From Escherichia phage AV112: DNA of 64,000 nucleotides. Where the stretch lies: sequence record OR352942.1; one strand, written 5' to 3'. The notes under the pieces are model-generated. The model saw only the letters and a program-made list of their open reading frames with translations. It was not told the origin of the DNA and searched no databases. Positions 3,984-40,568 of the stretch are shown here, one piece after another; the first letter of the stretch is position 1; each line of letters opens with the position of its first letter. The position numbers were made by a program, and so were the translations under genes.

Positions 3984-4999
3984 TGTGTTGCCTCAATATA
4001 AAGTTCGTTGGAATATTTGACCAGCGCTTCTCTGTCTTCGTCTGAGATATCTGGAATCGCGTCAATATATTCTTTAATGATATCTTGAAGAGATTTAATC
4101 TCGATTTCCTGGTCGTCATCAGATTCAACACTGTTATCAACTTTAGAAACCATACGAAGAGAGTGAACTACTTTTTCAAGTTCAGATTCAAACTTAGTCA
4201 ACTCTGAATCAATTTCTGATACTATAACACGTACGGCTAGATTAGTATAATCAGAATAATTGATTTTGCCTTTAAACGGATAAGTGATTCGTCGATGCCA
4301 TGTTGTTTCGTTAGGAATAAATTCCATACGTTCAACATCAGTGTCAAATACCCAAAATCCGCGCGGGTCGTTCTCATCACCTGCAGTAAGGGTCCATGGT
4401 GTCCCAATATATTTGACGTTAGCAGCTTCAGAGATTGTGTGGAAGTGGCCGGACCAGACTTGTTTATAGGTCTTTAAGAAATCAGGTTCAAGCCCATGAG
4501 ACTTCATTCCTTTATAGAAATAAAAACCATTCAGTTCCCAGTGCCCAACACAATACGCTGCGGAAGAAGTCTTGATGTGCTCTAAGATTTCACCTGTATT
4601 TTCTTCGCACATCCATGGAACGATATCAATCAGACATCCGTCAAAATCTACAGTAGTTGGATGCTCGTAAATAGTAAAGTTTTCAAATTGAGTTAACAAT
4701 TCAGAAACAGTGTTAGGTGTTATTGTATTCTTAAACGCCATGTCATGGTTTCCTATCGTGACATGAACGTGAATGCCTGCTTTAGAAATCATATCAACGA
4801 TTTCACGATTGAATTCCATTGTACGATGTGTTATTGCTTTACGGACGTCAAACCAATCACCGTACTGAATCCAAGTTTTAATCCCATGTTTCTTAGAGTA
4901 TTCAATTGCTTGACGAATACCATCACGTTGAATATCTTGAACCCATGGGTCGTCTTGTTTGACTCCGATATGGAAGTCGCCTAAGTGCAAAATTTTCAT
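3980..4999 (-). CDS. 47: gp47 recombination endonuclease subunit (Mre11/SbcD-like phosphoesterase)
   Basis: 339 aa; N-terminal MKILHLGDFHIG and GNHD metallophosphatase motifs; same length as T4 gp47. Confidence 0.92.
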   Translation of the reverse strand: MKILHLGDFHIGVKQDDPWVQDIQRDGIRQAIEYSKKHGIKTWIQYGDWFDVRKAITHRTMEFNREIVDMISKAGIHVHVTIGNHDMAFKNTITPNTVSELLTQFENFTIYEHPTTVDFDGCLIDIVPWMCEENTGEILEHIKTSSAAYCVGHWELNGFYFYKGMKSHGLEPDFLKTYKQVWSGHFHTISEAANVKYIGTPWTLTAGDENDPRGFWVFDTDVERMEFIPNETTWHRRITYPFKGKINYSDYTNLAVRVIVSEIDSELTKFESELEKVVHSLRMVSKVDNSVESDDDQEIEIKSLQDIIKEYIDAIPDISDEDREALVKYSNELYIEATQ

Positions 5000-5040
5000 A
5001 TTATTTCCTCATTAGTTAATTCATTCTATCATCCGCTTAT

Positions 5041-5071
5041 AAAGCAAAAAAAGGAACTCCGAAGAGTTCCT
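5041..5071 (-). terminator. rho-independent terminator (8-bp stem, UUCG tetraloop, U-run)
   Basis: Plus strand aggaactc-cgaa-gagttcct preceded by aaagcaaaaa; on the minus strand this is a hairpin followed by UUUUUGCUUU. Confidence 0.55.
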
Positions 5072-5243
5072 ATCCACATAGTACACCATACAGAGGCTCA
5101 TTTGAACTTTTAAATCGAATGGGCTTGTATGTAATAGTTCCTTCGGCTTTAGCTTTATCATAAGACTCTTTAAAACGCCTCATTCTTTCTGCTTTGCCTT
5201 TACGGATTTTATCGAAATTTTCAGAGGTCAGGTCGTTCGTCAT
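5070..5243 (-). CDS. hypothetical small basic protein (57 aa, 47.1-like position)
   Basis: Manual translation MTNDLTSENFDKIRKGKAERMRRFKESYDKAKAEGTITYKPIRFKSSNEPLYGVLCG; GAGGTGA ribosome-binding site upstream; below the track length cutoff. Confidence 0.35.
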   Translation of the reverse strand: MTNDLTSENFDKIRKGKAERMRRFKESYDKAKAEGTITYKPIRFKSSNEPLYGVLCG

Positions 5244-5282
5244 GCATAATCACCTCTCAGAAAATACCTAAATCGATTTCTC

Positions 5283-5504
5283 TCATCGTTTCCACCATTT
5301 CTTAACTTGAAATGAGTCAACCCACACGAGTTGTTTTGGGTCGGCCCTTACAACAGGTGGACAAATTTCTGTAATAGAACTGTCGTGATATTCCTTTTCA
5401 GAGATTTTAACACAAAGAGGACCTCCCAATTTAAGGGTGAACCCTGCGTTCAGCTTAAGACGTTTAAACTTTGTTTGAACTAGCGCCATTAATGATGTCC
5501 TCAA
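5283..5504 (-). CDS. hypothetical protein
   Basis: 73-aa ORF in the interval where T4 carries alpha-glucosyltransferase. Confidence 0.35.
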   Translation of the reverse strand: MRTSLMALVQTKFKRLKLNAGFTLKLGGPLCVKISEKEYHDSSITEICPPVVRADPKQLVWVDSFQVKKWWKR

Positions 5505-5787
5505 TAGCCTGACGAGTAGTAACCCACTGGATTTTAATTAACTTGTCATTATATGGTTGTCGTAGAATATCCCGAGATTTCTTAATAGCATATTCGTAAG
5601 CTTCGAAGTTGTTTTGAATTGCTGCTTCTTGAGCATGAGCATAAAGACGGTTTAGTTCAAAACGATTCTTTTTAAGAATCTTTTCGGATTTTTTACGTGC
5701 TTCAGCTTCATTTTTCTTTTGGATTTCTTGTAGCATTTTAGCTACTGCATCTTCTGCTTCTTTATTTTCAATAATCTCGGTAGTCAT
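5464..5787 (-). CDS. hypothetical coiled-coil protein
   Basis: 107-aa ORF, Lys/Glu-rich. Confidence 0.4.
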   Translation of the reverse strand: MTTEIIENKEAEDAVAKMLQEIQKKNEAEARKKSEKILKKNRFELNRLYAHAQEAAIQNNFEAYEYAIKKSRDILRQPYNDKLIKIQWVTTRQAIEDIINGASSNKV

Positions 5788-5788
5788 A

Positions 5789-5998
5789 TTATCTCATTAA
5801 ATTAAAATAAAAACGTCCATCCTCTTCAATACGGAACTCATACTCAACCGGAGTCCCATTTATCGAAAATGACACGTCATGTGGGTTCAAAGGGTCGATG
5901 TCAAAATTAATTTTAAATTCACGACCCAACAGTTTTACCAAATAAGGGATTGCTTCGTCAAAAGGTTCTTCTAAGTAGTTAGAGATGTCAATTGTCAT
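5789..5998 (-). CDS. hypothetical protein (start uncertain)
   Basis: Track ORF 5789-6082 overlaps the 3' end of gene 55; an internal Met start would reduce the overlap. Confidence 0.3.
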
Positions 5999-6545
5999 CC
6001 TCATATAAAAAATCCAAACTAGGCGAATCGCTAACAACTTCCTTCTTTTCAGCCCCAGGAGCTTTATAAGCGGATTCTTCATAATGCGTCATTTTATCGT
6101 AGATGTCTTGAATAAACGTTTCATCTACCAACGCTACCATATCATCGTCATGACTGTCGTAGACGTTATGAACGAAGTAACTATATTTCTTTGCAACTTC
6201 CTTACGTTCTTTTTTGATACGTTGGACAAAAGCATTAAAACAAGCTCGAGTTATGTATGCATGTGGGTTATTGTACTTAGTTTCGTCGAAATTATGAAGT
6301 CCCTTAATAGAGGCTTCAATCCCATCTGCAATCATCTCCTGCTTCCAAGACTGGGTATATCCTGAAAAGTTGAAACGTTTGGACAGGCCTTCGGCGATAA
6401 GCATAATTGCTAAACCGATGGTATCATTCTGACGAATAATTTTGTTTGGGTCTTTATTATTTAAGAGCTCCTTTTTCCACTCGATTATAGCGGCGAGAAG
6501 CTCTTTATTATTCACATAGTTATTTTTAGGTTTTTGTTCAGTCAT
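5988..6545 (-). CDS. 55: gp55 late-transcription sigma factor
   Basis: 185 aa; near-identical over long stretches to T4 gp55 as recalled ([71 protein letters not shown]). Confidence 0.9.
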
Positions 6546-6574
6546 AAGTACCTCTTAGCTCAATTCATAGGTCT

Positions 6575-6610
6575 ATTATATCATAATATTTAGAGACCTA
6601 TCTTAAAGCA
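6575..6610 (-). promoter_or_regulatory. candidate promoter upstream of gene 55: -10 TATAAT inside an 8-bp inverted repeat, MotA-box-like TGCTTTA upstream
   Basis: Plus strand ataggtct...agacctat flanks attata (minus TATAAT); RC of taaagca is TGCTTTA, but its spacing to this -10 is about 23 nt, longer than I recall for middle promoters. Confidence 0.3.
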
Positions 6611-6700
6611 CGAGATACTACCAAAGATACGTAACTTTCATAAAGTTGTCGACTTAAAATTCACCAAACTTTTATTCGGTTATAGTAATTCGAGATAGTT

Positions 6701-6928
6701 TCATTCTATTTCCTTTGCTGCAAATAAGGCAGCATCCAACGAATCAAATTGGTCAACGAAATCAATATTCAATGCATCGTCATCCGTAGCATATAACCAC
6801 CATTGTTTGAATTCGTATTCTAGAATAAATCCAGGACCTTCAATCTGAGGAAGACCTAGACTATTTGTACTAACTTCATAACCAGCTAGACGCAGGTCAT
6901 TAATCAAAGTTTCTGTTAATACGTTCAT
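6701..6928 (-). CDS. hypothetical protein
   Basis: 75-aa ORF. Confidence 0.35.
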   Translation of the reverse strand: MNVLTETLINDLRLAGYEVSTNSLGLPQIEGPGFILEYEFKQWWLYATDDDALNIDFVDQFDSLDAALFAAKEIE

Positions 6929-7260
6929 TTTACCGCCTTAACAATTTTCAGGTCAACGAATTTTTTCTTACGTTGATTTTTCATACGACGGATAGTCTTT
7001 TCAGAGATTTCATGTTTCTGATAAGCTTTAGATTCAACACCAAATGCAGCAACGTCAAATTCAGAAAGAATATATTGTACTAGAATTTCACGAATAGAAT
7101 TACGTCCAATTTTCTGGTCGTGTTTTTGCATGATTTCATAAAGACGGAATTCCCACGCGTCAAGAACTTGAGGAGTAACAATATTGCCGGATTCAAGAAG
7201 AGCAACAACTTTATCGAAAGCGAAAGAATTAACTACGTTTTTGATTTTAGTAGACATATT
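6925..7260 (-). CDS. hypothetical protein (start moved to internal Met)
   Basis: Track ORF 6925-7296; the Met at 7260 (MSTKIKNV...) follows GAGGAAAATAAT and lies downstream of the promoter repeat at 7276-7321. Confidence 0.4.
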   Translation of the reverse strand, partial: NMSTKIKNVVNSFAFDKVVALLESGNIVTPQVLDAWEFRLYEIMQKHDQKIGRNSIREILVQYILSEFDVAAFGVESKAYQKHEISEKTIRRMKNQRKKKFVDLKIVKAVK

Positions 7261-7539: not shown

Positions 7540-7751
7540 GCCCCGTTTTCGTCGATGAACTTAATCCAGTCATTTACAGACCATTTAGTTGTATCACCCT
7601 TTAGATTAACATTTAAAGTATATAATCCCTGCTTAAAAAGCATTCGTTTGATATTCATAATTTCCTCAACTGTAACGATAACATTCGTTAGCTTTACGTT
7701 TGGCTTCAGTATGAGAAGTATTATAATCATAATCTTCTTTACTGTAAACAT
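7524..7751 (-). CDS. hypothetical protein
   Basis: 75-aa ORF. Confidence 0.3.
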   Translation of the reverse strand: MFTVKKIMIIILLILKPNVKLTNVIVTVEEIMNIKRMLFKQGLYTLNVNLKGDTTKWSVNDWIKFIDENGAWNTK

Positions 7752-7959
7752 CTTTTTTCAACTTACGAACTTCTTTGCGGAGTTGTCGATTCATTTCGTT
7801 CTTGACTTCAGAATCAACGCCTTTCATACGTTTCCATTTATCCGAGCGGAAAATGTTTTCAACCATGTCTTTGTGGCTAACACCGTCAGGAGCTTTACGT
7901 TTACCAAAATAGTCGTAATCACGAACTTTCAAATCTTTACGACGATACGTTTTACCCAT
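7666..7959 (-). CDS. hypothetical basic protein (start uncertain)
   Basis: Lys/Arg-rich ORF; overlaps neighbours in the track. Confidence 0.3.
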   Translation of the reverse strand: MGKTYRRKDLKVRDYDYFGKRKAPDGVSHKDMVENIFRSDKWKRMKGVDSEVKNEMNRQLRKEVRKLKKDVYSKEDYDYNTSHTEAKRKANECYRYS

Positions 7960-7966
7960 AAGTACC

Positions 7967-8335
7967 TCAGAGGTTGATTGATACAATGCGTTTGATAAAA
8001 TTCACTTCACTTACTGAAAGGTCTTTAAGACCGATTGATTCTAAACGCTGAGTAAGCGTCAACATCGGGATATAGTCCCAATGTGTTTTAGACGTTTGAT
8101 AAGTACGGGCGCCATTAGCAATTTCAACGTTCAAATCAGAAATGGTAATGAATACCAGACGTTCGTTGTTTACATTAAGAGTTAGAACAACTTTCTTCGA
8201 ATTCAGACTAATCATTTTGTTTTCCTCTATAGTAGATGGTTTAATCTTAACACATCTATTGAGGATGTAAACTGTTTTATGAAAATATTTTCGATTTGAG
8301 AGGGGCACAAGGAGATAGTGAAGTGAAGATTCCAA
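7967..8335 (-). CDS. hypothetical protein
   Basis: 122-aa ORF. Confidence 0.4.
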   Translation of the reverse strand: MESSLHYLLVPLSNRKYFHKTVYILNRCVKIKPSTIEENKMISLNSKKVVLTLNVNNERLVFITISDLNVEIANGARTYQTSKTHWDYIPMLTLTQRLESIGLKDLSVSEVNFIKRIVSINL

Positions 8336-8380
8336 TGGATTATATTAGAAATGAGATAAAGAAGACCAGGCGGCACCTGG

Positions 8381-8704
8381 TCAATCTTCTATGATATCAG
8401 AGTCATATCCTAATGAAATCAAGGACTTTTTAAACTCTGCAATATTCTTTTGTTTCTTATCATTTAAAAATATGACAGGATAACGAATATTAAGTGAAGT
8501 GAATCCTGCACGTTTAGCAAGAGATACGATTAAAGGACGGTCATATTCAATCTTACCATTATTAGTGAGGACTTTATAAAATGTATAAGGAGCATTGAGC
8601 TCCTTTAAAAGTTTTGTAACAGTATAACATCCTGGACAACGTCCTACTTCTTCAGGGATGCCATAGATTTCAATCTTGTTCTTTAAGTTCGAGTTTTGTT
8701 CCAC
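8381..8704 (-). CDS. nrdH: NrdH-like glutaredoxin (likely GTG start)
   Basis: KIEIYGIPEEVGRCPGCYTV...GYDSDIIED with a CPGC redox motif. The track ORF extends upstream with no in-frame ATG near the conserved N-terminus; a GTG at 8702-8704 follows AAGGAA. Confidence 0.7.
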   Translation of the reverse strand: MEQNSNLKNKIEIYGIPEEVGRCPGCYTVTKLLKELNAPYTFYKVLTNNGKIEYDRPLIVSLAKRAGFTSLNIRYPVIFLNDKKQKNIAEFKKSLISLGYDSDIIED

Positions 8705-8987
8705 GAGAAATAATTCCTTGGTAAGCCCAATAAGGAGGATTAACAGAATCCTCGCCAGAGTTTTCTTCAGGAAAATAAACCTGGATAACAAATCCAGATT
8801 CATCAAAGGTAAAATAAACTGTAGGTAATTCACCTAACAATTCAGCACGATTATTAATTTCTTCGAGTTCTCGTTCGCATCCAGCCCAAAAACTAGGATT
8901 TAGACTACATTCATAGAAATAATAGTCATTACCGAACATATCAAAACCATTCCAACTCTCAACCACATACCGCTCAAAACTAATCAT
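8670..8987 (-). CDS. hypothetical protein
   Basis: 105-aa ORF whose stop overlaps the nrdH start. Confidence 0.4.
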   Translation of the reverse strand: MISFERYVVESWNGFDMFGNDYYFYECSLNPSFWAGCERELEEINNRAELLGELPTVYFTFDESGFVIQVYFPEENSGEDSVNPPYWAYQGIISRGTKLELKEQD

Positions 8988-9319: not shown

Positions 9320-9790
9320 TTAATCATGTTTCCACACCCCGTCGGTATTTGTCCAAAGTCGCTGATTATCTGATCCTCGCCACAGTTTTTTGGTCGGAAG
9401 ATTTTTCTCATACTTCCCATCAATAATAACATCAACATATTTAAGCATTTCTAGTTGTTTAATATCTTCAAACTTATATCCTGTCCACAACCAAATGCTT
9501 TTATTGGGATAAAGTTTTTTTACTGTTTGAACAATGCAATGAACAACATCTTGGTTATCAGGATAGAGAGGGTCTCCTCCAGTTATAGTTAATCCTTCTA
9601 TATAATCATTATTCAAACATTCAATTAATTGTTCCAGCGTTTCACCGGTGAATGGGATACCATTTCTAGCGTTCCATGTTGATTTATTATAACACCCCTC
9701 GCATTTATGCAAACAACCTGTAACGAAAAGAACGACCCTGCAACCGGGGCCATTCACAAAATCGCAAGGATAAAATCTATCATAATTCAT
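9320..9790 (-). CDS. nrdG: anaerobic ribonucleotide reductase activase NrdG (radical SAM)
   Basis: 156 aa; CxxxCxxC-type cluster CLHKCEGC; same length as T4 NrdG. Confidence 0.9.
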   Translation of the reverse strand: MNYDRFYPCDFVNGPGCRVVLFVTGCLHKCEGCYNKSTWNARNGIPFTGETLEQLIECLNNDYIEGLTITGGDPLYPDNQDVVHCIVQTVKKLYPNKSIWLWTGYKFEDIKQLEMLKYVDVIIDGKYEKNLPTKKLWRGSDNQRLWTNTDGVWKHD

Positions 9791-29675: not shown

Positions 29676-30254
29676 TTAATTACCACGGGCTGCATTAGCA
29701 ACGGCGTAAGCGTACTGAACATTAGCGTCTTTAAACGTACCTTTAGAGGTATCTAGTTCTGCCTTAAAGCCACCTTTAGCCATAACATCGGCAAATTCTT
29801 TACGGAAGGCCATTGCATCAAGACCTTTCCATGATGATTTGTGCTTGGCGAATTCAAGACCAGCGTAGTTGACAGCCTTAGCTAATTTATTATCAATGAC
29901 CCATTTACCGGCTTTAGGCACAAACACCGGGCCTTTCTGTTTAGAGAATAGTTTTAAATTCCAGCGACGAAGATCACTGTCGGCTTTAACAAAAGCTGCG
30001 TCTAAGTTACTAGCAACAACATCTTGAATATGGCCAAATTTAAGCCCATCAACTTCAATATTTAAATCGGTACGCCAGCGAAGTCCTTCCCAAGCGAAGG
30101 CTTTAAAATCAGAAGCTTTTGTGGCTAGATATCGTTCAAGTGGAGCAGTTTTAGGGTCAAAGCCGTTACCGCCACGATAAGTCCACTCGTCCTTATTAAT
30201 GCCTTGAGCTTTTCCTGCAAAGGCCTCGGCGATAAATTCTTTATATGTTTTCAT
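29676..30254 (-). CDS. ipIII: internal protein with capsid-targeting sequence (IPIII-like)
   Basis: 192 aa; N-terminus MKTYKEFIAEA; length similar to T4 IPIII. Confidence 0.7.
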   Translation of the reverse strand: MKTYKEFIAEAFAGKAQGINKDEWTYRGGNGFDPKTAPLERYLATKASDFKAFAWEGLRWRTDLNIEVDGLKFGHIQDVVASNLDAAFVKADSDLRRWNLKLFSKQKGPVFVPKAGKWVIDNKLAKAVNYAGLEFAKHKSSWKGLDAMAFRKEFADVMAKGGFKAELDTSKGTFKDANVQYAYAVANAARGN

Positions 30255-30317: not shown

Positions 30318-30578
30318 TTAAGCTTTACCGCCGGAAATAATTCCGAAGTTGTTAAAATCGTATCCAATATCGTCAACATCTACTTTAGGACTTGTAGCAA
30401 CATAAGCAATTTCACTACGTTTTGCATAGGTGTTGATTTCTTTACCATCGCCACCTAAGAAAAAATACCCATTACGTTTTAATGAGCCAAAGTCTTCCGC
30501 ATCACCAATGAAAGCTTTAACTTTAAATTTAGGACCTTTGGCATCTGCTTCAGCGATAAATTCTTGATACATTTTCAT
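30318..30578 (-). CDS. internal-protein-like small protein with capsid-targeting sequence
   Basis: 86 aa; N-terminus MKMYQEFIAEA. Confidence 0.6.
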   Translation of the reverse strand: MKMYQEFIAEADAKGPKFKVKAFIGDAEDFGSLKRNGYFFLGGDGKEINTYAKRSEIAYVATSPKVDVDDIGYDFNNFGIISGGKA

Positions 30579-31056: not shown

Positions 31057-31338
31057 CTATTTTTCTGAAGCGCCTGAAATATATTTTTCAAGACGTTGTT
31101 TCATCAGCGAGCCGTTCTTAGCGATTTCTTCCGGTTTATCGCACATACGCAACAAGGCTTCAAGCTTAACGATATCACTGGTGCGTTCAAATTTGCGAGT
31201 ATCTATCTTACTAGCAAGTTCAGAAATACGTGCTAATAGACTTTCGGCTTCAACCAAAGCTGCACCTAGCTTAGTTGCAAATGTGTCAGTAGCTTCGTTA
31301 AGAATAGATTCTGATAAAAATTCACTATATGTTTTCAT
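31057..31338 (-). CDS. internal-protein-like protein with divergent capsid-targeting sequence
   Basis: From the internal Met: [16 protein letters not shown]..., a diverged match to MKTYQEFIAE. Confidence 0.5.
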
Positions 31339-31823
31339 ATATACGCTTTCCAAGTTCCTGTTTTAAATGTTGAGATTACGCGTTTCGCGCGATTAGGTGT
31401 CTGACGATACCATTTAGATTGGGCTAGATTTACTGCCGCTTCGTCCCAACGTTTCTGTTGAAGCATACGAAGAGAATTAGTAAAACCGGCGACGCCTGCT
31501 ACACCCATTTGGAAGACCATATTGACCAGTGCACATCGACGAACCGCATCTAAAGAATCGTATACCGGTTTAAGTTTAGCATTACCCAAGATTCCGCGAA
31601 CGGCTTTATCAACGTCTTCATTAAATAACTTTTCAGCCTCATCAAGGGTAATTGTACCGTTGCATTTACGTCCGATCATTCTGTCAAGTTCAGCTTTAGC
31701 TACGGTTAAAGACGGGTTCTTTGTTACTAAATGACCTATGCCAATCGTCCAAAAGCCTTCAGTGTCTTTGTATAAAGTCAGTCTAAGACCTTCGTCATTA
31801 CGAAGCATTTCAAATATATTCAT
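31335..31823 (-). CDS. e: lysozyme e (endolysin, T4 lysozyme family)
   Basis: From the internal Met: [88 protein letters not shown], near-identical to T4 lysozyme as recalled. Confidence 0.93.
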
Positions 31824-31850
31824 AATACCTCCCACGTTTATAGGAGGTAT
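31824..31850 (-). promoter_or_regulatory. hairpin sequestering the lysozyme e ribosome-binding site
   Basis: Plus strand cctcc(31828-31832)-cacgtttata-ggagg(31843-31847); on the mRNA the GGGAGG site pairs with upstream CCUCC, and the loop carries a TATAAA late-promoter-like element, as in the classical T4 e arrangement. Confidence 0.6.
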
Positions 31851-31857: not shown

Positions 31858-32331
31858 TTATAGGAGGGTAGTGAGCACCTTATATAATGATTTGCCCATT
31901 ACATATTCCCATTGAGAAGGTTTAATTAAAGCGAATGCATCAAATTCAGGAATCTGACGTCCGTCTTGGAATGTATGATAGGAATTACAAACACTGTTTC
32001 TGAATTGCTCGTGCTCTACAGGGATGGTATATAGGAACAGATGAATATTCTTATTGTCTGAGTAATGATGTTCACCTAGGTCTTTCAGGAAGGCAGGGTC
32101 ATATTGTGTAAACCCAGTTTCTTCTTCGCATTCACGAACAGCGGCTTCGATAGGAGATTCACCTGGCTCGACACGGCCTTTAGGAATATCCCACCGATGA
32201 GCTAAAGAACCTTTAGGACGAGAACCAGTTACACGCCCCATGAATAATTCTTTATCTTCGGTAAGGAAAATAATACCGGCTGATAGTTCTTTCACTTTAT
32301 TTTTCTTACTCATCATCTCAAATTCCTGCAT
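31858..32331 (-). CDS. nudE: Nudix hydrolase NudE
   Basis: 157 aa; Nudix box GRVEPGESPIEAAVRECEEETGF. Confidence 0.85.
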   Translation of the reverse strand: MQEFEMMSKKNKVKELSAGIIFLTEDKELFMGRVTGSRPKGSLAHRWDIPKGRVEPGESPIEAAVRECEEETGFTQYDPAFLKDLGEHHYSDNKNIHLFLYTIPVEHEQFRNSVCNSYHTFQDGRQIPEFDAFALIKPSQWEYVMGKSLYKVLTTLL

Positions 32332-32804
32332 TCGGTAATAAAACGTTCAACTTCATTATTCTTGGCCTTTATCTTGTCTTTACGTTCCTGTAAACTACTT
32401 TTAACAAGATTAATAATGATGGCGGCGGTACCGCCGCCAATGATGCCACCAACAACACTTATGATACTAGATGCTAATAAGATAGCAATAATATCAACAA
32501 AACCGAAAGAACTCACCTTAGTACTGAAAAACCATATAGACGGCACAAATATAATCCATCCTGTTATCCATTGGCACTTATTGAAAAACTTTTCAAGCTC
32601 AGCTTGAGTTGTTCGTATTACTTCATCGATAGGTTTATATCCATTAATGTATCTGTTCACGATAATACCTGCTGGCTGGTCGATTTTAAATTCTTGGCAA
32701 ATATGTTTAACTAAGTAGGATGGACATCCTGTCCAATCTACTGAATAGTATGAAATACCTTCATTGCCATCGTCTATATTAGACCAATATGTTTTGTTAA
32801 TCAT
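32313..32804 (-). CDS. membrane protein with C-terminal xFIxECR tail
   Basis: 163 aa; hydrophobic segments; ends ...NNEVERFITECRNLR. Confidence 0.5.
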   Translation of the reverse strand: MINKTYWSNIDDGNEGISYYSVDWTGCPSYLVKHICQEFKIDQPAGIIVNRYINGYKPIDEVIRTTQAELEKFFNKCQWITGWIIFVPSIWFFSTKVSSFGFVDIIAILLASSIISVVGGIIGGGTAAIIINLVKSSLQERKDKIKAKNNEVERFITECRNLR

Positions 32805-33475
32805 TACCAGCCTTCCATAGGGAATTCCAGATAAACTTGAGCATTGACACGAATTTCATTGGTAATCTTTTTAACTCGGTCTGTATTACGAGATACACGT
32901 CCGAACCAACGCCATCCATTACTAATTGCACGAGAACCAGTGTGCCATGTTTGCCAATCAAACTGAAGAAGAGTACGATCTGGAGCTTCCCATTTCTCTA
33001 GTTCACCTTTTTCGATTTTTTCGAGGACTTCTTTGTGCCACTGGCGATAGATAAGTTCGCCATCAGGAATCTGACTGAACTCTGCAGTTCCTGTTGCAAA
33101 ATGAGTAGGACACACATCAGCGTTAACAAGACCAAGAATATGTTCAGAATGGTAACGAGGGTTGTCATAGTCAGGTTGTCCTGCAGTAATAAAGTGTTGA
33201 CCAACTGGAATATCAGGGCGTGGTACGTCATCATGGTGATAGCCTGGGATTGCAGGATACCAACCAGGCATCAGCATGTGGACTCGTGAATCAAATACAA
33301 CCTGGTCGGTGTTCCAATCATCAGGAAGATTTTGGATAAAGCTACGAGTAATTGGGCCACCATTATCAAAAGCAAAATTCAAATCGCAGTTAAAGAACAT
33401 AGGCTCGTTTTTAATCTGGTTGTTTTTAATCTCATGAGCAAAACCACCTACTGCACGAGCTTGGCTATTAAACAT
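32804..33475 (-). CDS. hypothetical protein (His/Asp-rich)
   Basis: 223 aa; motifs GYHHDD and YHSEH suggest metal binding; no secure family assignment. Confidence 0.4.
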   Translation of the reverse strand: MFNSQARAVGGFAHEIKNNQIKNEPMFFNCDLNFAFDNGGPITRSFIQNLPDDWNTDQVVFDSRVHMLMPGWYPAIPGYHHDDVPRPDIPVGQHFITAGQPDYDNPRYHSEHILGLVNADVCPTHFATGTAEFSQIPDGELIYRQWHKEVLEKIEKGELEKWEAPDRTLLQFDWQTWHTGSRAISNGWRWFGRVSRNTDRVKKITNEIRVNAQVYLEFPMEGW

Positions 33476-33491
33476 ATTATTTTCCTCGATA

Positions 33492-33797
33492 TTATTTTCC
33501 TCGGCATTCTTTAATGAAATTTTCTAGATTGGTAGATTCAATAGCTTTTTTACGAGCTTCTGCGTGTTCTTCTTCAGACAATTTACATTTATAATTGACC
33601 CAGGCATTATGGTCGAAACTAGTCGTGGCATATAATAACAATGCTCCGACGAATAATAAAAACGGTGATAAGAATACAAAACCAGGAACACCATCCATAT
33701 CGTAAGCCTTTTGTAATACTGCAACAGAAAGGGCCGCGTAAAAAGGTGATGCAAATATTGTTAAAAGACCAATTCGGTTGGTTTCTGTTAATTTCAT
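33492..33797 (-). CDS. membrane protein with C-terminal xFIKECR tail
   Basis: 101 aa; two hydrophobic helices; ends ...NLENFIKECRGK. Confidence 0.5.
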   Translation of the reverse strand: MKLTETNRIGLLTIFASPFYAALSVAVLQKAYDMDGVPGFVFLSPFLLFVGALLLYATTSFDHNAWVNYKCKLSEEEHAEARKKAIESTNLENFIKECRGK

Positions 33798-33826
33798 ATT
33801 ATTCTCCTCATGTTTTAATAGGACTA

Positions 33827-33854
33827 CTATAACATAGTCCTATCATGTTGTAAA
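33827..33854 (-). promoter_or_regulatory. early promoter/stem-loop cassette (palindrome ataggactactataacatagtcctat)
   Basis: Minus strand TTTACA-17 nt-TATAGT with the -10 inside a 9-bp inverted repeat; near-identical copies at 35112-35150 and 41876-41915. Confidence 0.55.
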
Positions 33855-33867
33855 CAGTTTTGTGAAG

Positions 33868-34824
33868 TTATTTGAAAGGTTTCACCATATGAAAATTTTC
33901 TTTAAACCGTTTGATGTAATCATTTTTGCCGAGCTTATGATACATAGCCACTACTTCATAATAGTTCTCGTATGCGTACTCACGGAACCAACCAGAGGTG
34001 ATGCTTGTACAGACCTTTTCCAATGCCATCATGAAACTGGCTTCAGGGTTAATTTTAAAGTCATTAGGAATCTGAGAACGTTCTAATGCTAGTACACATG
34101 ATTCTTCGTATACACCGGCCAATTTGACCATTTCTGGTAATGATTCGAACTTCTCTCGTGAGGTCATGACTTCAGAACCGTCTTTCATATAAAATGTATA
34201 CGCTGGACGGTCTGTTAGCGCAATGGCTTCATGAATAGTATCATGGTCATATGTATAGATGTCATCTTTAAAGAACGCACTTTTAGAAGTGTCAAGAACT
34301 GGGTGAGCATAGTTCAAGGTTTCTTTCTGGCGTTTCAGCATAATTTCAGTAAGTTCATCGTTCAGTGTAACACCTTTACCGCGAAGATACTGAATATGGT
34401 TCATAGTCTTTAAAAAGAATGGATTATTTTTCTTGAAACGATGAGACATCTTAATTGCAAGACACATCTCAGGAGTTGCCCAGTAAAACCCGTTCAAACG
34501 GTCTTTAGTCAAATTTTTCTTGGCGTATTTTAAAAGGTCATAAGAAGACGTGAAATCTTCAGGAGTGAGTTCACCGACTAATTCACGGACATTAGTGATT
34601 GCCGGAACAATATATGCTTCAAAATGAGTTTCGCGTCCGTTATGGAAACATTTGAAAACTTGGACACCAGGGTTATCTTGATGAACGTATACACCCATCA
34701 TTTGATTTTTGAATGCATTCCAAGAACCTTGGTCTGCAATAAAGTCCCAGTCACTATTTTTGATAGCGTTAGAATCAATAAGACCGTGATAGTGAAGTGC
34801 ACGAGAACCAATAACTAACATCAT
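33868..34824 (-). CDS. hypothetical protein (318 aa)
   Basis: N-terminal VIGSRALHYHG...SDWDF vaguely nucleotidyltransferase-like but spacing atypical; no secure assignment. Confidence 0.4.
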   Translation of the reverse strand: MMLVIGSRALHYHGLIDSNAIKNSDWDFIADQGSWNAFKNQMMGVYVHQDNPGVQVFKCFHNGRETHFEAYIVPAITNVRELVGELTPEDFTSSYDLLKYAKKNLTKDRLNGFYWATPEMCLAIKMSHRFKKNNPFFLKTMNHIQYLRGKGVTLNDELTEIMLKRQKETLNYAHPVLDTSKSAFFKDDIYTYDHDTIHEAIALTDRPAYTFYMKDGSEVMTSREKFESLPEMVKLAGVYEESCVLALERSQIPNDFKINPEASFMMALEKVCTSITSGWFREYAYENYYEVVAMYHKLGKNDYIKRFKENFHMVKPFK

Positions 34825-34852
34825 AATATTTTCCTCGGATTAATTCATTAAC

Positions 34853-35104
34853 TTAAATTTCACGACATGCGATATCATATTCATCCCATAGGTCATCGTG
34901 TGAAGCCTCTACTAATGGAACGATTGTACCATTTATGTCTTCATTATAAGGGCAAATTGTACAGTGTGCATCTTCGAATCGGATGCCTTTGTGTTCAGAT
35001 TTTTTATAACGCATATCGAATATCTTTGCAAACTTTTCACGAGTAATGGTTTTAGCAACCACTTTGGTTCCAACACTTTCGTAATAAATCATTGTGGACT
35101 CCAT
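34853..35104 (-). CDS. hypothetical Cys/His-containing protein
   Basis: 83-aa ORF. Confidence 0.4.
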   Translation of the reverse strand: MESTMIYYESVGTKVVAKTITREKFAKIFDMRYKKSEHKGIRFEDAHCTICPYNEDINGTIVPLVEASHDDLWDEYDIACREI

Positions 35105-35111
35105 TTAATTT

Positions 35112-35150
35112 GATAGGACTACTATAACATAGCCCTATCTTGTTGTAAAC
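35112..35150 (-). promoter_or_regulatory. early promoter/stem-loop cassette (copy)
   Basis: gataggactactataacatagccctatcttgttgtaaac; RC TTTACA-17 nt-TATAGT. Confidence 0.55.
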
Positions 35151-35154
35151 TGTT

Positions 35155-35352
35155 TTAGCAAGAATAACTAGATGATACCCAGCCTTGAACAGTAATACTA
35201 TTATTTGATACCGAGATTGCATTCTGGAGATTCAAACCTGCATTATCTTCAATCCACAATGTAACTTCTTCGCGTTCTTCTGTTGCAATTTGGAACAGGT
35301 TTTCTAGGGCAGCTACTGCCGTACGTACAGCACAATCCAATTCACGAGACAT
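35155..35352 (-). CDS. small protein, C-terminal W-V-S-S-S-Y-S-C tail family, member 1
   Basis: 65 aa ending ...ITVQGWVSSSYSC. Confidence 0.45.
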   Translation of the reverse strand: MSRELDCAVRTAVAALENLFQIATEEREEVTLWIEDNAGLNLQNAISVSNNSITVQGWVSSSYSC

Positions 35353-35361
35353 GTAGTTTCC

Positions 35362-35634
35362 TTAGCAAGTGTGAGAAGATGCAATCCAACCACCAGTTTC
35401 AAGGCTCAGGTTGTAGTCGTATTGGTAAACGTCAGCCCATTCAGCATAGCCGTTTTTTGTACAACGTTCAAGATCGGCTTTAAGTTGTCCGGGTGAATGA
35501 TATGTTCCACCCATACCATAAGCTGGATACAAGTCGAATGTTGTGTTTTGTTTATCAGCAATTTCTTTGGCAGCCTCAATAGCTGCATAGATTTTTGCTA
35601 CGGCTTCAGCCAGTTCGGTTTGTTCTTTAGACAT
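35362..35634 (-). CDS. small protein, C-terminal W-I-A-S-S-H-T-C tail family, member 2
   Basis: 90 aa ending ...LETGGWIASSHTC. Confidence 0.45.
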   Translation of the reverse strand: MSKEQTELAEAVAKIYAAIEAAKEIADKQNTTFDLYPAYGMGGTYHSPGQLKADLERCTKNGYAEWADVYQYDYNLSLETGGWIASSHTC

Positions 35635-35643
35635 AATGATTCC

Positions 35644-35949
35644 TTAGCACAACGCAGAAGACGAAACCCAAGCACCTTCAGTAATAACGTAACCATTACC
35701 TTCACGCTTAACATCGCCACCATTATTTTCAATTTCATCTTTCATCCACTGGGATACGATTTCACCCTTAGGATAATAAGTACGACCGCTACCATAATCA
35801 CCTACAGAAAATGATACGGCGTATTGGTCTGCGATCTTTGTTGCTTCTTCTTCGATACGTTCAGCTTGATTCAGAAGTTTATAAATTGCATCTGAAGCGG
35901 ATTTGGCATCATTAAACTCTGGTACTTTAATTTCAATAATCTTACTCAT
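35644..35949 (-). CDS. small protein, C-terminal W-V-S-S-S-A-L-C tail family, member 3
   Basis: 101 aa ending ...ITEGAWVSSSALC. Confidence 0.45.
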   Translation of the reverse strand: MSKIIEIKVPEFNDAKSASDAIYKLLNQAERIEEEATKIADQYAVSFSVGDYGSGRTYYPKGEIVSQWMKDEIENNGGDVKREGNGYVITEGAWVSSSALC

Positions 35950-36305
35950 TTTCTACATTCCTTAATAAAGTTTTCGATTGTTTCATTTTCACGTCTAGCT
36001 AGGAGTTCATTATAACTAATCATTTGAGAAGCGTAAACCTTTTTATTTTTCTTGTTATGGTTTATAAAATCGTAGTAAAAATAGACTACAGTACAAAATG
36101 ATGCGATGGATGCAAAGGCTTGGGTATACCGTAAGTCCTGCCATTGGTCTGTGAATCCACCAGTGTTCCCTATAAATCCTAACACAACGCCGTCAATAAG
36201 AAATCCAACTAATCCAAAGGCAAATCCCATGCCAATACTCATAATAAAAATTAGAATGTTCTCACCAAGAGAAGGCCATACGGTTAAGAGTTGAGGCTTT
36301 TGCAT
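35946..36305 (-). CDS. membrane protein with C-terminal xFIKECR tail
   Basis: 119 aa; hydrophobic core; ends ...ENETIENFIKECRK. Confidence 0.5.
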   Translation of the reverse strand: MQKPQLLTVWPSLGENILIFIMSIGMGFAFGLVGFLIDGVVLGFIGNTGGFTDQWQDLRYTQAFASIASFCTVVYFYYDFINHNKKNKKVYASQMISYNELLARRENETIENFIKECRK

Positions 36306-36709
36306 CTTATTTCCTTAACGAATTCCATAGCTTCTTCATATTCGTACTTTTTAACAGCTTCATCATACTGAGCTTGGGCTTTTGCGCACTGAACTTTCCA
36401 TTCTCTTAATCGGGCTCTATAATGACGTCCTTGGTGCCAATATCCTACCCAATTAATAGGCATTAATAAAAACGGTACAATAAGTGGTGCGACGAACATT
36501 AATGAAAATGCTGCATCAGACGATATAACTTCACTAGAATCTAAAACAGCTCCTATAATCGTAAAGATTAAAAATGCTAAAGCTAAAATAGGGCCAAATA
36601 GTACTTCGTTTGGGATTAATTTACGCTTGTATTCATACGCCCAGGGCTTAATTGGCATGTATAGGGTTGGCTTTGACATATTCTCTACATTCCATAATAA
36701 ATTGCTCAA
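36284..36709 (-). CDS. membrane protein with related C-terminal tail (EFVKEIRCK)
   Basis: 141 aa; hydrophobic segments; ends ...EEAMEFVKEIRCKSLNS; start probably an internal Met. Confidence 0.45.
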   Translation of the reverse strand: MSNLLWNVENMSKPTLYMPIKPWAYEYKRKLIPNEVLFGPILALAFLIFTIIGAVLDSSEVISSDAAFSLMFVAPLIVPFLLMPINWVGYWHQGRHYRARLREWKVQCAKAQAQYDEAVKKYEYEEAMEFVKEIRCKSLNS

Positions 36710-37265
36710 GGATTAAATTGTTAGTGAAATTAGGACTAACAACCATGGTTTCATAAAGCGCATCAATAGCACTTAAAGCATCAACTCTTTTAAGCAAAGG
36801 CTTGCCTTCATACATAGTTTCAGAATCGACGATTAACGTAAAGTAATATTTTTTATTATTGACCAGAACTTCTGTATCAATATAAAACATGTTAGATCTT
36901 AAAAGCTTATCTCTAAAACCATAATAATCTTCAGAGCGTTCGCTGATATATTCCAATTCAGTGTTTAAACAACAAACAGACCACGTAGGAGCAACGAAAT
37001 CAGTGAATCTAATATCATGGTCTGCAACTAGTTTAGCAATAGCTCCGATATCATGAATCATAATACCTGGGGCTAATAAAGATTTTCGGTTATTTGCATA
37101 TTCAGTTGTCTCATAAGAAGACGACCAGTACCATTTACGTCCAGTTGCAACATATCGTAATGAATCAACTAAAGACGTAGGTGGATTTACCTTATTTCGG
37201 AACTCTTCGAACATTGAGTCAATATCATTATTTTGGTTTCGCATGTTAACTCCTTTATTATCCAA
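36648..37265 (-). CDS. soluble protein with xFIMECR motif near the C-terminus
   Basis: 205 aa; ...NNLILEQFIMECREYVKANPIHAN. Confidence 0.45.
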   Translation of the reverse strand: MDNKGVNMRNQNNDIDSMFEEFRNKVNPPTSLVDSLRYVATGRKWYWSSSYETTEYANNRKSLLAPGIMIHDIGAIAKLVADHDIRFTDFVAPTWSVCCLNTELEYISERSEDYYGFRDKLLRSNMFYIDTEVLVNNKKYYFTLIVDSETMYEGKPLLKRVDALSAIDALYETMVVSPNFTNNLILEQFIMECREYVKANPIHAN

Positions 37266-37293
37266 AAGGAGGACCGGAGTCCTCCGTATTATT

Positions 37294-37887
37294 TTATTTC
37301 AAAGAGTTAATATATTCTTGTACATCAGCAGAAGTGGTTTCGACACCAGCTGGAGTGCCATTGAACGTTTCAACACGAGTCAGAGTGTCTTCGATATCAA
37401 CCTTAGTCAGTGCAGCGATTTCAATTACATCGTCAGCCGTAGAGATACCAAGGGCATTGGCTGCTCGAGTTTCACGAATGTATTCGAGTTTGATTGCCAG
37501 GTTCTGACGAGCATCGTCAAGTTCAACCACCTTACGAGCAATTTCAATTCGCATAGCAGCGTACCCGTCAGCTTTTGTATTAAGTTGTTCGGCGGTTCGA
37601 CGATACAGAAGACCAAGCTTAGCATGCATGGTAACATCTTGTCCTTCAGCCAGGAGCTTACGAATTTCAAGTTCCTTAGAAGCGGCTTGCTTATTCTTTT
37701 CATTAACAAGTTCGCGAATACGTTTTTCTTCATTAATAGATTTAACAGAAGCCGTTTTTAGTTCTTTGATTTGGGTAATCAACTTATCTGCGGCTGCGTT
37801 ATACTGTTCTTCGACAGTCAGATTTTTAGCCATAGCAGTACCCAGTTTAGTGCGGATGAATTCAACAAGTTTCTTCAGTGTGTTCAT
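37294..37887 (-). CDS. coiled-coil protein (possibly PspA/IM30-like)
   Basis: About 197 aa from MNTLKKL; long predicted helices; the PspA-like call rests on composition only. Confidence 0.4.
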
Positions 37888-38891: not shown

Positions 38892-39356
38892 TTATTTAAT
38901 TTGTTTAGCAGACCAGATACGGTCTTTAATAAGTTTTTGGATATCTTCAACATACTCAAGGCTATGAGCGTGAGGATTATCTTTGAAGCTATGTGCTCGT
39001 GCCAGTTTCTGGCCTTCTGTTTTGATTACTAAAAGCTCTTTAAGAATTGCTTCATACTTAGAAATAATTCCTTTGGCGATATTTTTTTCTTGAGCGGCTT
39101 TAGGGTCCGCTTTTGGCGCAGGTGCTTTACCTGTAGCTTTCTGGAACAATTCACCTGATGCAGCTAGGCTTTTAAAAACTCGGCTAACAGTATTAGCATT
39201 AGTAAAACCTTCGGCTTTAAAATCTCTAATAAAACGGAAACGTTCTTCATCAGAGGCGTCTTTGTAAGAATATTTACCTGCTCTAATTGCTGCAATCGCA
39301 GCGGCTTTTACATCTGAACTAGATTGTTCAGTCAAAAATTCAGCGTATGATTTCAT
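38892..39356 (-). CDS. internal-protein-like protein with capsid-targeting-sequence-like N-terminus
   Basis: 154 aa; N-terminus MKSYAEFLTEQ, a diverged MKTYQEFIAE. Confidence 0.5.
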   Translation of the reverse strand: MKSYAEFLTEQSSSDVKAAAIAAIRAGKYSYKDASDEERFRFIRDFKAEGFTNANTVSRVFKSLAASGELFQKATGKAPAPKADPKAAQEKNIAKGIISKYEAILKELLVIKTEGQKLARAHSFKDNPHAHSLEYVEDIQKLIKDRIWSAKQIK

Positions 39357-39740: not shown

Positions 39741-39816
39741 TGGTCGAGACAGTAGGGGTCGAACCTACGACCTAGGACTTAGAAGGTCCTTGCTCTTCCT
39801 TCTGAGCTATGCCTCG
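39741..39816 (-). tRNA. tRNA-Arg (anticodon TCT), CCA encoded
   Basis: Manual fold: acceptor CGAGGCA/TGTCTCG, D-arm GCTC..GAGC, anticodon loop CTTCTAA, T-arm GTAGG-TTCGACC-CCTAC. Confidence 0.8.
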
Positions 39817-39820
39817 GATT

Positions 39821-39895
39821 TGGCGGACATGCATGGATTCGAACCATGGACCAATTGATTAACAGTCAACTGCTCTACCACTGAGCTACACATCC
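39821..39895 (-). tRNA. tRNA-Asn (anticodon GTT), CCA encoded
   Basis: Manual fold: acceptor GGATGTG/CATGTCC, D-arm GCTC-AGTGGTA-GAGC, anticodon loop CTGTTAA, T-loop TTCGAAT. Confidence 0.75.
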
Positions 39896-39899
39896 AAAT

Positions 39900-39986
39900 T
39901 GGTTGGGAGTGATGGAGTCGAACCACCTGAGTCGCAATGACAATGGATTTACAGTCCACACCGCTACCTCTACGGGATAACTCCCC
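39900..39986 (-). tRNA. tRNA-Tyr (anticodon GTA), long variable arm, CCA encoded
   Basis: Manual fold: anticodon stem GTGGA/TCCAT, loop CTGTAAA, about 15-nt variable arm, T-arm GGTGG-TTCGACT-CCATC; pair 1:72 appears as G-A, so the 5' end is uncertain by 1 nt. Confidence 0.6.
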
Positions 39987-39995
39987 AAATTAATT

Positions 39996-40070
39996 TGGTG
40001 GCCCTGGGTGGAATTGAACCACCATCTGGCGATTATGAGTCGCTTGCTTGAACCTTCCAGCTACAGGGCC
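39996..40070 (-). tRNA. tRNA with anticodon CAT (Ile2/lysidine type or elongator Met), CCA encoded
   Basis: Manual fold: acceptor GGCCCTG/CAGGGCC (1:72 paired, so not initiator), anticodon loop CTCATAA, T-arm GGTGG-TTCAATT-CCACC. Confidence 0.7.
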
Positions 40071-40071
40071 T

Positions 40072-40147
40072 TGGTGCTGATTGACGGAATTGAACCACCG
40101 ACCTTCTCATTACAAGTGAGTTGCTCTACCTACTGAGCTAAATCAGC
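40072..40147 (-). tRNA. tRNA-Thr (anticodon TGT), CCA encoded
   Basis: Manual fold: acceptor GCTGATT/AATCAGC, D-arm GCTC-AGTAGGTA-GAGC, anticodon loop CTTGTAA. Confidence 0.8.
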
Positions 40148-40152
40148 AAAAC

Positions 40153-40242
40153 TGGCGGAGGCGATAGGATTTGAACCTATGAGTCGCCGGAGCGACTGCC
40201 GGTTTTCAAGACCGGTGCATTAAACCACTCTGCCACGCCTCC
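40153..40242 (-). tRNA. tRNA-Ser (anticodon TGA), type II, CCA encoded
   Basis: Manual fold: acceptor GGAGGCG/CGCCTCC, anticodon stem CCGGT/ACCGG, loop CTTGAAA, long variable arm, T-arm ATAGG-TTCAAAT-CCTAT. Confidence 0.8.
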
Positions 40243-40244
40243 AG

Positions 40245-40318
40245 TCTCCATACAAGGATTTGAACCTTGGACCTCCTGATCCCAAATCAGGCGCTCTACC
40301 AAACTGAGCTACACGGAG
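40245..40318 (-). tRNA. tRNA-Pro (anticodon TGG), no encoded CCA; 2 nt upstream of tRNA-Ser
   Basis: Manual fold: acceptor CTCCGTG/TATGGAG, D-arm GCTC-AGTTTGGTA-GAGC, anticodon loop TTTGGGA, T-arm CAAGG-TTCAAAT-CCTTG. Confidence 0.8.
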
Positions 40319-40328
40319 TAAATTAAAT

Positions 40329-40402
<74 letters not shown>

Positions 40403-40407
40403 AAATT

Positions 40408-40494
40408 TGGTGCGAGAAGTGGGACTCGAACCCACAAGGAAATCATTCCGCAGCATTTTAAGTGCTGTGCCTTTACCAATTTGACCATTCTCGC
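40408..40494 (-). tRNA. tRNA-Leu (anticodon TAA), type II, CCA encoded
   Basis: Manual fold: acceptor GCGAGAA/TTCTCGC, anticodon stem CAGCA/TGCTG, loop CTTAAAA, long variable arm, T-arm GTGGG-TTCGAGT-CCCAC. Confidence 0.8.
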
Positions 40495-40495
40495 G

Positions 40496-40568
40496 CTGGG
40501 AATAAAGGACTCGAACCTTTGCATCCTGGAATCAAAATCCAGTGCCTTACCAACTTGGCTAATTCCCA
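40496..40568 (-). tRNA. tRNA-Gln (anticodon TTG), no encoded CCA; 1 nt upstream of tRNA-Leu
   Basis: Manual fold: acceptor TGGGAAT/ATTCCCA, anticodon stem CTGGA/TCCAG, loop TTTTGAT, T-arm AAAGG-TTCGAGT-CCTTT. Confidence 0.8.

Follow-up and report, generated by a model that had tools for sequence, protein, structure and literature searches.

A short C-terminal peptide shared by small proteins encoded between e.6 and nudE in T-even-type phages, with codons that usually also serve as Shine-Dalgarno sequences

The tail-bearing genes of phage AV112

T4 is the most thoroughly studied phage, and to our knowledge its genes e.2 to e.6 have no assigned function. Here we describe a short C-terminal peptide, the tail, which is shared by proteins encoded in this region in a 64,000-nucleotide stretch of Escherichia phage AV112 (sequence record OR352942.1; the whole stretch is called the window below) and in its relatives. 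A first-pass annotation of the window had reported five open reading frames (ORFs) encoding unrelated, mostly membrane, proteins with the common ending xFIKECR, and all five were recovered on the minus strand with the positions and C-termini that it had given. The tail genes, which we take to be early genes from the transcription of T4, are flanked by the lysozyme gene e (31335-31835) on one side and by a cluster of ten tRNA genes (39741-40568) on the other. The 8.4 kb around them match Escherichia phage AV113 at 99.9% identity and phage ATK47 at 96%, both of the genus Mosigvirus, which comprises the RB69-like T4-type phages. The gene names e.2 to e.6 were assigned by comparison with T4 and with the annotation of ATK47.

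Gene e.6 (37294..37887, 197 residues) lies directly upstream of the tail-bearing genes. A GC-rich hairpin (37268..37285) stands between e.6 and e.5 at the place where a terminator is annotated in ATK47; all the features described here are on the minus strand. The soluble protein e.5 (36648..37244, 198 residues, phrog_2607) ends with ...ILEQFIMECREYVKANPIHAN and has its motif codons at 36684-36710, and the start of e.4 lies 4 nucleotides past the Arg codon of this motif. e.4 (36284..36679, 131 residues, phrog_2604) has two transmembrane (TM) segments and the tail ...AMEFVKEIRCKSLNS (motif codons 36305-36331), and the start codon of e.3 sits inside the R-C codons of the e.4 tail. e.3 (35946..36305, 119 residues, two TM segments, phrog_2330) ends with ...TIENFIKECRK (motif codons 35952-35978), and its stop codon overlaps the start of the next gene (ATGA). 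Further downstream, an RB69-type protein of 101 residues with two TM segments (33492..33797, phrog_9798) has the tail ...NLENFIKECRGK with motif codons at 33501-33527. The last of the five is a long e.2 homolog (32313..32804, 163 residues, phrog_2203), with an N-terminal soluble domain followed by two TM segments and the tail ...EVERFITECRNLR (motif codons, V to R, 32325-32351); one homologous record carries the name 'e.2 ... RB69'. The AGGA of the nudE ribosome-binding site falls in the R-N codons of this last tail.

The start of e.4 is more probably ATG 36679 (MSKPTLY, as in T4) than TTG 36709, and that of e.5 more probably ATG 37244. Identity between Mosigvirus and T4 is uneven along 35946-37887, at about 88% for e.6, 54% for e.4, 47% for e.5 and 36% for e.3, which is labelled 'similar to T4 e.3' in ATK47 and retains its tail. 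For e.2, the tblastn match to T4-type phages (about 41% identity) spans the N-terminal quarter only. The five tail-bearing proteins of the window fall in five different PHROG families, and none of them is recognised by Pfam or NCBIfam.

Specificity and form of the motif

Among the 601 stop-to-stop six-frame ORFs of at least 40 residues in the window, the pattern F[IV].E[CSI]R had five matches, which were the five C-termini named above. The rest of the genome was assembled from the 99.9% identical phage AV113, and in the whole AV113 genome the looser pattern F[IV].[ED][CSI]R gave three extra matches, one internal to a real gene and two in antisense ORFs, and no further match at a C-terminus. 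When relatives are included, the conserved core generalises to Phi-x-x-[FW]-[IVL]-x-x-C-R. We therefore defined a strict form, [FW][IVL]..CR within the last 22 residues, and found it in 35 of 1,632 six-frame ORFs of at least 60 residues from 16 loci. Each of the 35 is a real gene located in the interval from e.6 to nudE, and the remaining approximately 1,600 ORFs gave no match. The first-pass annotation had named a similar frequency of the motif in unrelated proteins as fatal to its proposal, and this is not what we see; with every match in the window at one of the five C-termini and every strict match between e.6 and nudE, we rejected a chance origin.

The form of the motif needed some revision. 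The F-[IV]-x-x-C-R part of the proposed xFIKECR stood, whereas the acidic residue is not fixed: its position can hold E, D, Q, Y, H, G, M or R. All five window proteins have the motif at their C-terminal end, though e.4 and e.5 carry 6 and 11 residues beyond it, a stretch that overlaps the next gene. Within single families, the conservation of the motif columns was 0.41-0.63, compared with 0.28-0.39 elsewhere in the same family. The motif had not been recognised as a described one, and our literature searches by gene name and by UniProt name, in which coverage of the T4 literature was incomplete, likewise gave no description of it.

Distribution among relatives

The search of T4-like relatives showed that the tail is present in further genera. 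Our catalogue holds 46 tail-bearing ORFs in 11 representative loci, from Tequatrovirus, Mosigvirus, Gaprivervirus, Kanagawavirus and the Dhakavirus-annotated phage E33, and also from Yersinia phage fHe-Yen9-01, Klebsiella phage PWKp16, two metagenomic contigs and the Aeromonas phages 65 and phiAS4. Hence the five ORFs of the window are not copies of one decayed gene whose tail is lost in relatives, which had been the other way for the proposal to fail. The shared motif would group these 46 orphan ORFs into one functional set. Similarity beyond the tail does not reach far: a search for homologous proteins of the long e.2 and of e.5 brought up none but close relatives, a search of IMG/VR gave 2 related loci with e.4 and 6 with an e.5 alignment, a full HMMER search of 1.84 billion representatives with an e.5 profile found no remote homologs, and Pfam and NCBIfam gave no match above noise for any tail-bearing protein.

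In T4 itself the tails are ...EFVIDCRKIK in e.3, ...KFVKESRCKSQS in e.4 and ...KFVKECREYVK... in e.5. The e.2 gene of the T4 reference (NC_000866, 3473-3961 in the coordinates of our locus L001; 102 residues) is interrupted by stop codons, and its frame continues past them to ...NNFITECRKLK just before nudE. Since other Tequatroviruses have an intact e.2 of 162 residues with two TM segments and the ending NNFITECRKLK, the T4 reference e.2 is a broken, truncated allele. The presence of the T4 e.2 tail frame outside the annotated ORF had been considered as a sign of conservation at the DNA level, and we dropped this interpretation because the T4 record is a broken allele.

The proteins that carry the tail

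In agreement with the four membrane proteins first proposed, two hydrophobic segments occur in each of the long e.2, the 101-residue protein, e.3 and e.4; e.5 has none. The tail-bearing proteins as a set evolve fast. Most of those in the catalogue are of 90-195 residues with two TM segments, often encoded in tandem arrays, and the membrane proteins follow a common plan of a two-TM hairpin, a basic linker helix and the tail. The soluble ones comprise the e.5 types (178-289 residues) and a type of 92-113 residues. That the tail is a portable module on dissimilar bodies was borne out by hhalign, which aligned the families only via their last 10-40 columns. When the last 14 residues were removed, no cross-family pair of bodies scored better than shuffled controls (pairwise z about 0), and only Mosigvirus/Tequatrovirus ortholog pairs scored above the controls. 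With tails cut from the multi-genus alignments, the sole pair to survive in hhalign was the long e.2 and a Kanagawavirus paralog (locus L017, 6491-6811; probability 91%). The bodies can thus be called unrelated in that, one pair excepted, they have no similarity without the tail, and for the membrane proteins the word is too strong, given their shared architecture.

This shared architecture raises the alternative that the tail is a relic of common descent, the two-TM proteins being tandem duplicates of one ancestral gene for a small membrane protein, whose bodies have diverged past recognition and whose tail is the slowest-evolving remnant. It would fit with the one plan of two TM segments, basic linker and tail, with the tandem arrays (four tail-bearing genes in a row at 4724-6133 of locus L024), with the homology of the long e.2 and its Kanagawavirus neighbour outside the tail, with weak PHROG cross-family matches to the C-terminal half of phrog_2203 (E values of 1e-6 to 7e-3), and with the N-terminus M[SQ]KP common to e.3 and e.4. 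Going by these sequence features, common descent of a module of two TM segments, linker and tail is possible for the membrane proteins. It does not fit the soluble proteins, which carry the same tail on bodies of unrelated size and composition; nor does it fit well with body similarity that vanishes without the tail in all pairs but one. Moreover, a remnant would still need selection to persist, so that descent could explain the distribution of the tail and not its conservation, and would be compatible with a functional explanation. As an explanation of the tail in its own right, we consider common descent rather unlikely.

The four membrane proteins of the window have 8-11 Lys and Arg residues after the second TM segment, compared with 0-1 in the loop between the two segments. 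Because the segment after the second TM is basic, the positive-inside rule predicts that both termini, and with them the tail, are on the cytoplasmic side. In the motif the residues Phi, F, I/V and C stand at positions i, i+3, i+4 and i+7, within an arc of 100 degrees on a helical wheel, and the tail is accordingly predicted to be a two-turn amphipathic helix at or near the C-terminus. In an AlphaFold2 model of e.5 (predicted local distance difference test, pLDDT, 58), residues 177-192, which include the motif, are placed in the last helix with low confidence.

Selection on the peptide and on the ribosome-binding site

In the tail, F, I/V, C and R are under selection as amino acids. In 18 family-by-genus tails, the codons of these residues had a proportion of synonymous differences (pS) of 0.84 and of nonsynonymous differences (pN) of 0.19, while the flanking x codons of the same tails had a pN/pS of 0.84. 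Because synonymous sites are saturated and replacements are rare, the selection is at the level of the amino acids. The codons in use are TTT and TTC for F, TGT and TGC for C, and AGA, AGG, CGA and CGT for R. In the ENFIKECR shared by the 101-residue protein and e.3, for example, the protein sequence is identical and 5 of 24 nucleotides differ, all of them synonymously.

The same stretch of DNA also serves the next gene. All five tails in the window overlap or abut the ribosome-binding region or the start of the gene that follows: the K-E codons supply AAGGAA before the starts downstream of e.3 and e.4, the R-N codons supply AGGAAT before nudE, and the R-G codons supply CGAGGA before the gene downstream of the 101-residue ORF. 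Of the 46 junctions in the catalogue, 32 have the Shine-Dalgarno (SD) sequence of the next gene within the tail codons and 10 have it beyond the tail; for the other 4, no coupled start was found. An SD in the coding sequence of the upstream cistron and frequent overlaps of stop and start codons, such as ATGA, are features of translationally coupled cistrons; ordinary coupling, however, constrains 4-6 nucleotides and comes without a conserved peptide of nine residues. In SD-bearing tails 77% of the Arg codons are AGA, AGG or CGA, as opposed to 31% genome-wide, and 60% of the Lys codons in tails are AAG, as opposed to 24% genome-wide. The two residues that stand between this Lys and Arg are biased by the SD as well. 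In Kanagawavirus, Klebsiella and one metagenomic phage, Gly replaces the acidic residue and yields AAAGGA, by which the SD is kept and the charge is lost. Because the codon skew and the Gly replacement preserve the SD, part of the pattern is at the level of RNA. The tail stretch is therefore dual-coded, a selected peptide whose codons also serve as an SD, and the locus offers a clear natural case of a peptide motif and an SD on the same bases.

These data also bear on the explanation that the tail is a by-product of translational coupling, conserved only as the ribosome-binding region of the next cistron with no role for the peptide. The position of the tails at the next SD or start, the skew towards AAG, AGA, AGG and CGA, and the Gly replacement are what such a by-product would produce. 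A by-product would not keep the amino acids F, I/V, C and R over saturated synonymous sites, nor would it place the SD in different motif codons from tail to tail, with the Arg codon anywhere from -1 to 17 nucleotides from the next start. Furthermore, the motif survives where 19-103 nucleotides separate it from the next SD or start, or where there is no coupled start (the uncoupled or distant-SD cases are the e.5 types of Gaprivervirus and Kanagawavirus, phage 65 and phiAS4), and no other gene end in the genome bears it. We consider coupling without a role for the peptide improbable, and a pure artefact of the ribosome-binding site was dropped on the pS and pN values and the survey of junctions. 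An effect of the nascent peptide on re-initiation was dropped as well, as the motif persists without a following coupled gene.

At the junction between the 101-residue gene and the next gene, the window has a tandem 15-bp duplication (33474..33503, minus strand) in which CGAGGAAAATAATAT occurs twice. Both the SD and the stop codon are thereby present in two copies, and the downstream start is displaced; in the relatives examined the sequence occurs once. Compared with these relatives, the interval 33474-33503 has an 18-nucleotide patch in place of ATGAATAGTTCTAAAGTG, and the downstream protein begins with MFNSQ rather than MNSSKVFNSQ.

Recombination at the tails

The repeated gene ends have been used in recombination. 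The IMG/VR contig L012 and phage ZCEC14 lack e.2, and their e.3 ends with ...CRKLK, a chimeric tail that is followed directly by nudE. The crossover was in the nine bases TGCAGGAAA common to the e.3 and e.2 tails, with loss of the intervening 485 bases. A query with the chimeric junction matched contiguously in Yersinia phage PST and in vB_Eco_F26, whereas phages that carry e.2 matched in two pieces spanning 634 bases. The crossover leaves e.3 in frame and retains both a tail and the nudE ribosome-binding site, so that in-frame exchange between tails provides a route for one tail to reach unrelated bodies. A repeated gene end of this kind lets the phage gain or lose cassettes without breaking translational coupling.

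In ATK47, GADS24 and the IMG/VR contig L008, a small gene (annotated with 78 residues, RB69ORF130c-like, starting MSIAI) lies between the long e.2 and nudE. It is found at 2007-2243 of locus L002 and 9364-9600 of locus L014 and is absent from the window at 32311-32331. The short repeat GATGAGTA stands at both of its borders, which suggests that the gene was lost or gained via microhomology. In contig L008 (IMGVR_UViG_2974739009, 6554-7081), from a close relative, the body of e.3 is disrupted, with a stop-to-stop remnant of 33 residues in which ...ENFIKECRK and the downstream start are intact.

PeSLs are short repeats at gene borders in a variable region, and recombination between their copies deletes or exchanges genes (PMC2839356). 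The loss of e.2 in contig L012, ZCEC14, PST and vB_Eco_F26 resembles such events. PeSLs, however, are intergenic units of a sigma-70-like early promoter and a stem-loop terminator, whereas the tails belong to coding sequence, and a scan of the five motif segments found nothing that resembles a promoter or a terminator. Unlike PeSLs, the tails are conserved as peptide and not as DNA, and they maintain translational rather than transcriptional continuity. The tail could nevertheless be primarily a DNA module, a coding counterpart of PeSL cassettes selected for cassette shuffling. The precise loss of e.2 in several natural isolates, the gene bordered by GATGAGTA that is present or absent before nudE, and the PeSL shuffling documented in hyperplastic regions of T4-type phages (PMC2839356) all lend this some appeal. 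Most pairs of tails, on the other hand, share only scattered identical bases and would be poor substrates for recombination, the single documented crossover used nine identical bases of two particular tails, and selection for evolvability would not preserve amino acids. Because synonymous sites are saturated between most tails, recombination appears to be a consequence of the repeat and not its selected function, and a module kept primarily for shuffling is quite improbable in our judgement.

Comparison with terminal targeting and degradation signals

The capsid-targeting sequence of T4 is an N-terminal peptide of soluble proteins that are packaged into the head, and the prohead protease cleaves it off. 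Like the tail, this sequence (of the MKTYQEFIAE type) is a short portable terminal peptide on unrelated T4 proteins, and it contains F-I-x-E. Unlike it, the tail is C-terminal (1-24 residues from the end in all 46 proteins), stands mostly on two-TM proteins, has the core F-[IV]-x-x-C-R and shows no link to head genes. A shared 'EFI' could suggest that the tail is akin to the capsid-targeting peptide or to the e.6 N-terminal helix (LVEFIR); we dropped this idea, as the string carries little information and consists of common AT-rich codons. Four ORFs on the minus strand that flank the tail-gene region (29676-30254, 30318-30578, 31057-31353 and 38892-39356) have N-termini of the capsid-targeting type, MK[TMS]Y.EF[IL].E, a peptide typical of T4 internal head proteins.

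A C-terminal position, with basic last residues (CRK, CRGK, CRKLK), would also suit a signal for degradation or processing, either a degron for a host protease (ClpXP, FtsH or Lon) or a site for the prohead protease, whose recognition sequence is [LI]-x-E. I-K-E and V-K-E in the tails fit [LI/V]-x-E, and F-I-x-E occurs in the N-terminal capsid-targeting peptides of the window as well; F-I-x-E, however, is a low-information string of common AT-rich codons. Q, Y, H, G, M or R frequently takes the place of the Glu of the tail, which by sequence does not agree with the protease site, and the proteins concerned are membrane or small early-region proteins and not head components. The motif Arg stands anywhere from 1 to 24 residues before the free C-terminus, unlike in degrons that are recognised at the end; since an ssrA-like or MuA-like ClpX motif would require a fixed distance, a C-terminal degron of this kind was dropped. 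Altogether, degradation or processing is a very improbable role for the tail.

e.6 as a candidate partner of the tails

A pure artefact of the ribosome-binding site, a module for recombination only, a degron or protease site, and chance are all disfavoured. We propose that the tail helix may be a common cytoplasmic docking element through which all the proteins that bear it contact one partner, a proposal for which we see about an even chance. The identity of that partner is a guess. The tail-bearing proteins could alternatively bind each other or a host factor.

Gene e.6 was found in 1,101 phage records and is always upstream of the tail-bearing genes; in 11 of 13 catalogued loci a tail-bearing gene lies directly downstream of it. 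The two exceptions are Citrobacter phage Margaery and Serratia phage WSPA, in which e.6 is only about 35% identical. A promoter scan found no promoter-like site between the hairpin (37268-37285) and the e.5 start; promoter-like GTTTACA...TATAGT sites are further down, before 35104 and 33797. Sequence models gave no match for e.6. An AlphaFold2 model made from 24 sequences (pLDDT 76, above 85 in the hairpin) has an N-terminal helix followed by a long helical hairpin, and the nine best Foldseek matches of this model in the PDB were Vipp1 and related PspA-family proteins (best E value 6.7e-4), followed by archaeal CdvB2. The modelled fold of e.6 is thus compatible with Vipp1/PspA, an assignment that is structural and ambiguous, since the hairpin may be PspA/ESCRT-III-like or BAR-like. 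The Vipp1/PspA and CdvB2 classes are peripheral membrane scaffolds. Our literature search for phage-encoded PspA gave nothing relevant.

PspB and PspC are small membrane anchors of PspA. The two-TM proteins with predicted cytoplasmic tails lie directly downstream of e.6 and may be compared with the anchors encoded beside PspA-family genes. LiaI, for instance, is a small membrane anchor that recruits the PspA homolog LiaH (PMC9239133). LiaI, PspB and PspC are encoded beside a helical-hairpin, membrane-associated scaffold and recruit it through their cytoplasmic parts; here the putative counterpart of the scaffold is e.6, with its predicted helical hairpin. Unlike in the Lia and Psp systems, many different putative anchors and some soluble proteins carry one motif, and there is no sequence similarity to LiaI, PspB or PspC (no LiaI-LiaF-TM, PspB or PspC membership in Pfam or NCBIfam). 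Because PspA homologs are recruited by small membrane proteins encoded alongside them, e.6 would be the simplest choice for a partner common to all the tails, a tentative candidate that we prefer over others and yet think unlikely rather than likely to be the right one.

If e.6 were the partner, T-even phages may encode a membrane-scaffold system of their own, made of an e.6 polymer and diversifying anchors and adaptors that share a docking helix; this fuller picture is doubtful. In such a system e.6 would form a PspA/Vipp1/ESCRT-III-like polymer, and rapidly diversifying small two-TM anchors and soluble adaptors would bring it to the inner membrane or regulate it. The docking helix at their C-termini, Phi-x-x-F-[IV]-x-x-C-R, would be the same in all of these anchors and adaptors. 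New anchors could arise when new bodies are fused to the resident tail by recombination at the dual-coded junction of tail and ribosome-binding site.

Several points weigh against a docking helix with e.6 as its partner. The conserved synteny with e.6 could be inherited gene order. In the e.4 family, I, S or V stands in place of the motif Cys, and although the motif ranks in the top 5-14% of nine-column windows, it is never the single most conserved stretch of a family. Part of the conservation, that of the K-E, K-G and R-G codons, can be shown to act on the RNA, the pS and pN estimate pools non-independent pairs from only 18 sequences, and the sampling covers a few loci per genus. The docking proposal lends itself to experiment: the tail peptide can serve as bait for a shared binding partner, mutations can be made in the tail independently of the ribosome-binding site that overlaps it, and e.6 can be tested as a candidate PspA/Vipp1-like membrane scaffold that a phage encodes together with anchors for it.

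Other shared gene ends nearby

In the window, an ORF of 83 residues (34853-35104, minus strand) ends with ...WDEYDIACREI, a partial likeness to the tail (I-A-C-R-E) that is without the Phe. Its homologs in other genera end differently, and the likeness is probably a coincidence or a decayed tail.

A second family with a shared tail lies at 35155-35352, 35362-35634 and 35644-35949 (minus strand), with W-[VI]-S-S-S-x-x-C at the stop codon (for example GAWVSSSALC, GGWIASSHTC and QGWVSSSYSC). It consists of 3-5 small soluble proteins of 60-105 residues encoded in tandem (phrog_899 and phrog_4882), with ends that are rich in Ser and close with Cys. The family was also found in loci L017, L018, L019, L021-L025 and L029, and in every genus examined. 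Serratia phage WSPA (locus L029) has this second family, though it is without the FIxxCR tail. In the same phage, whose e.6 is 36% identical, the two ORFs that follow e.6 (7652-8170 and 8167-8745) share the C-terminal sequence RVLGDKYNPE[LI]MFT[RK]L.

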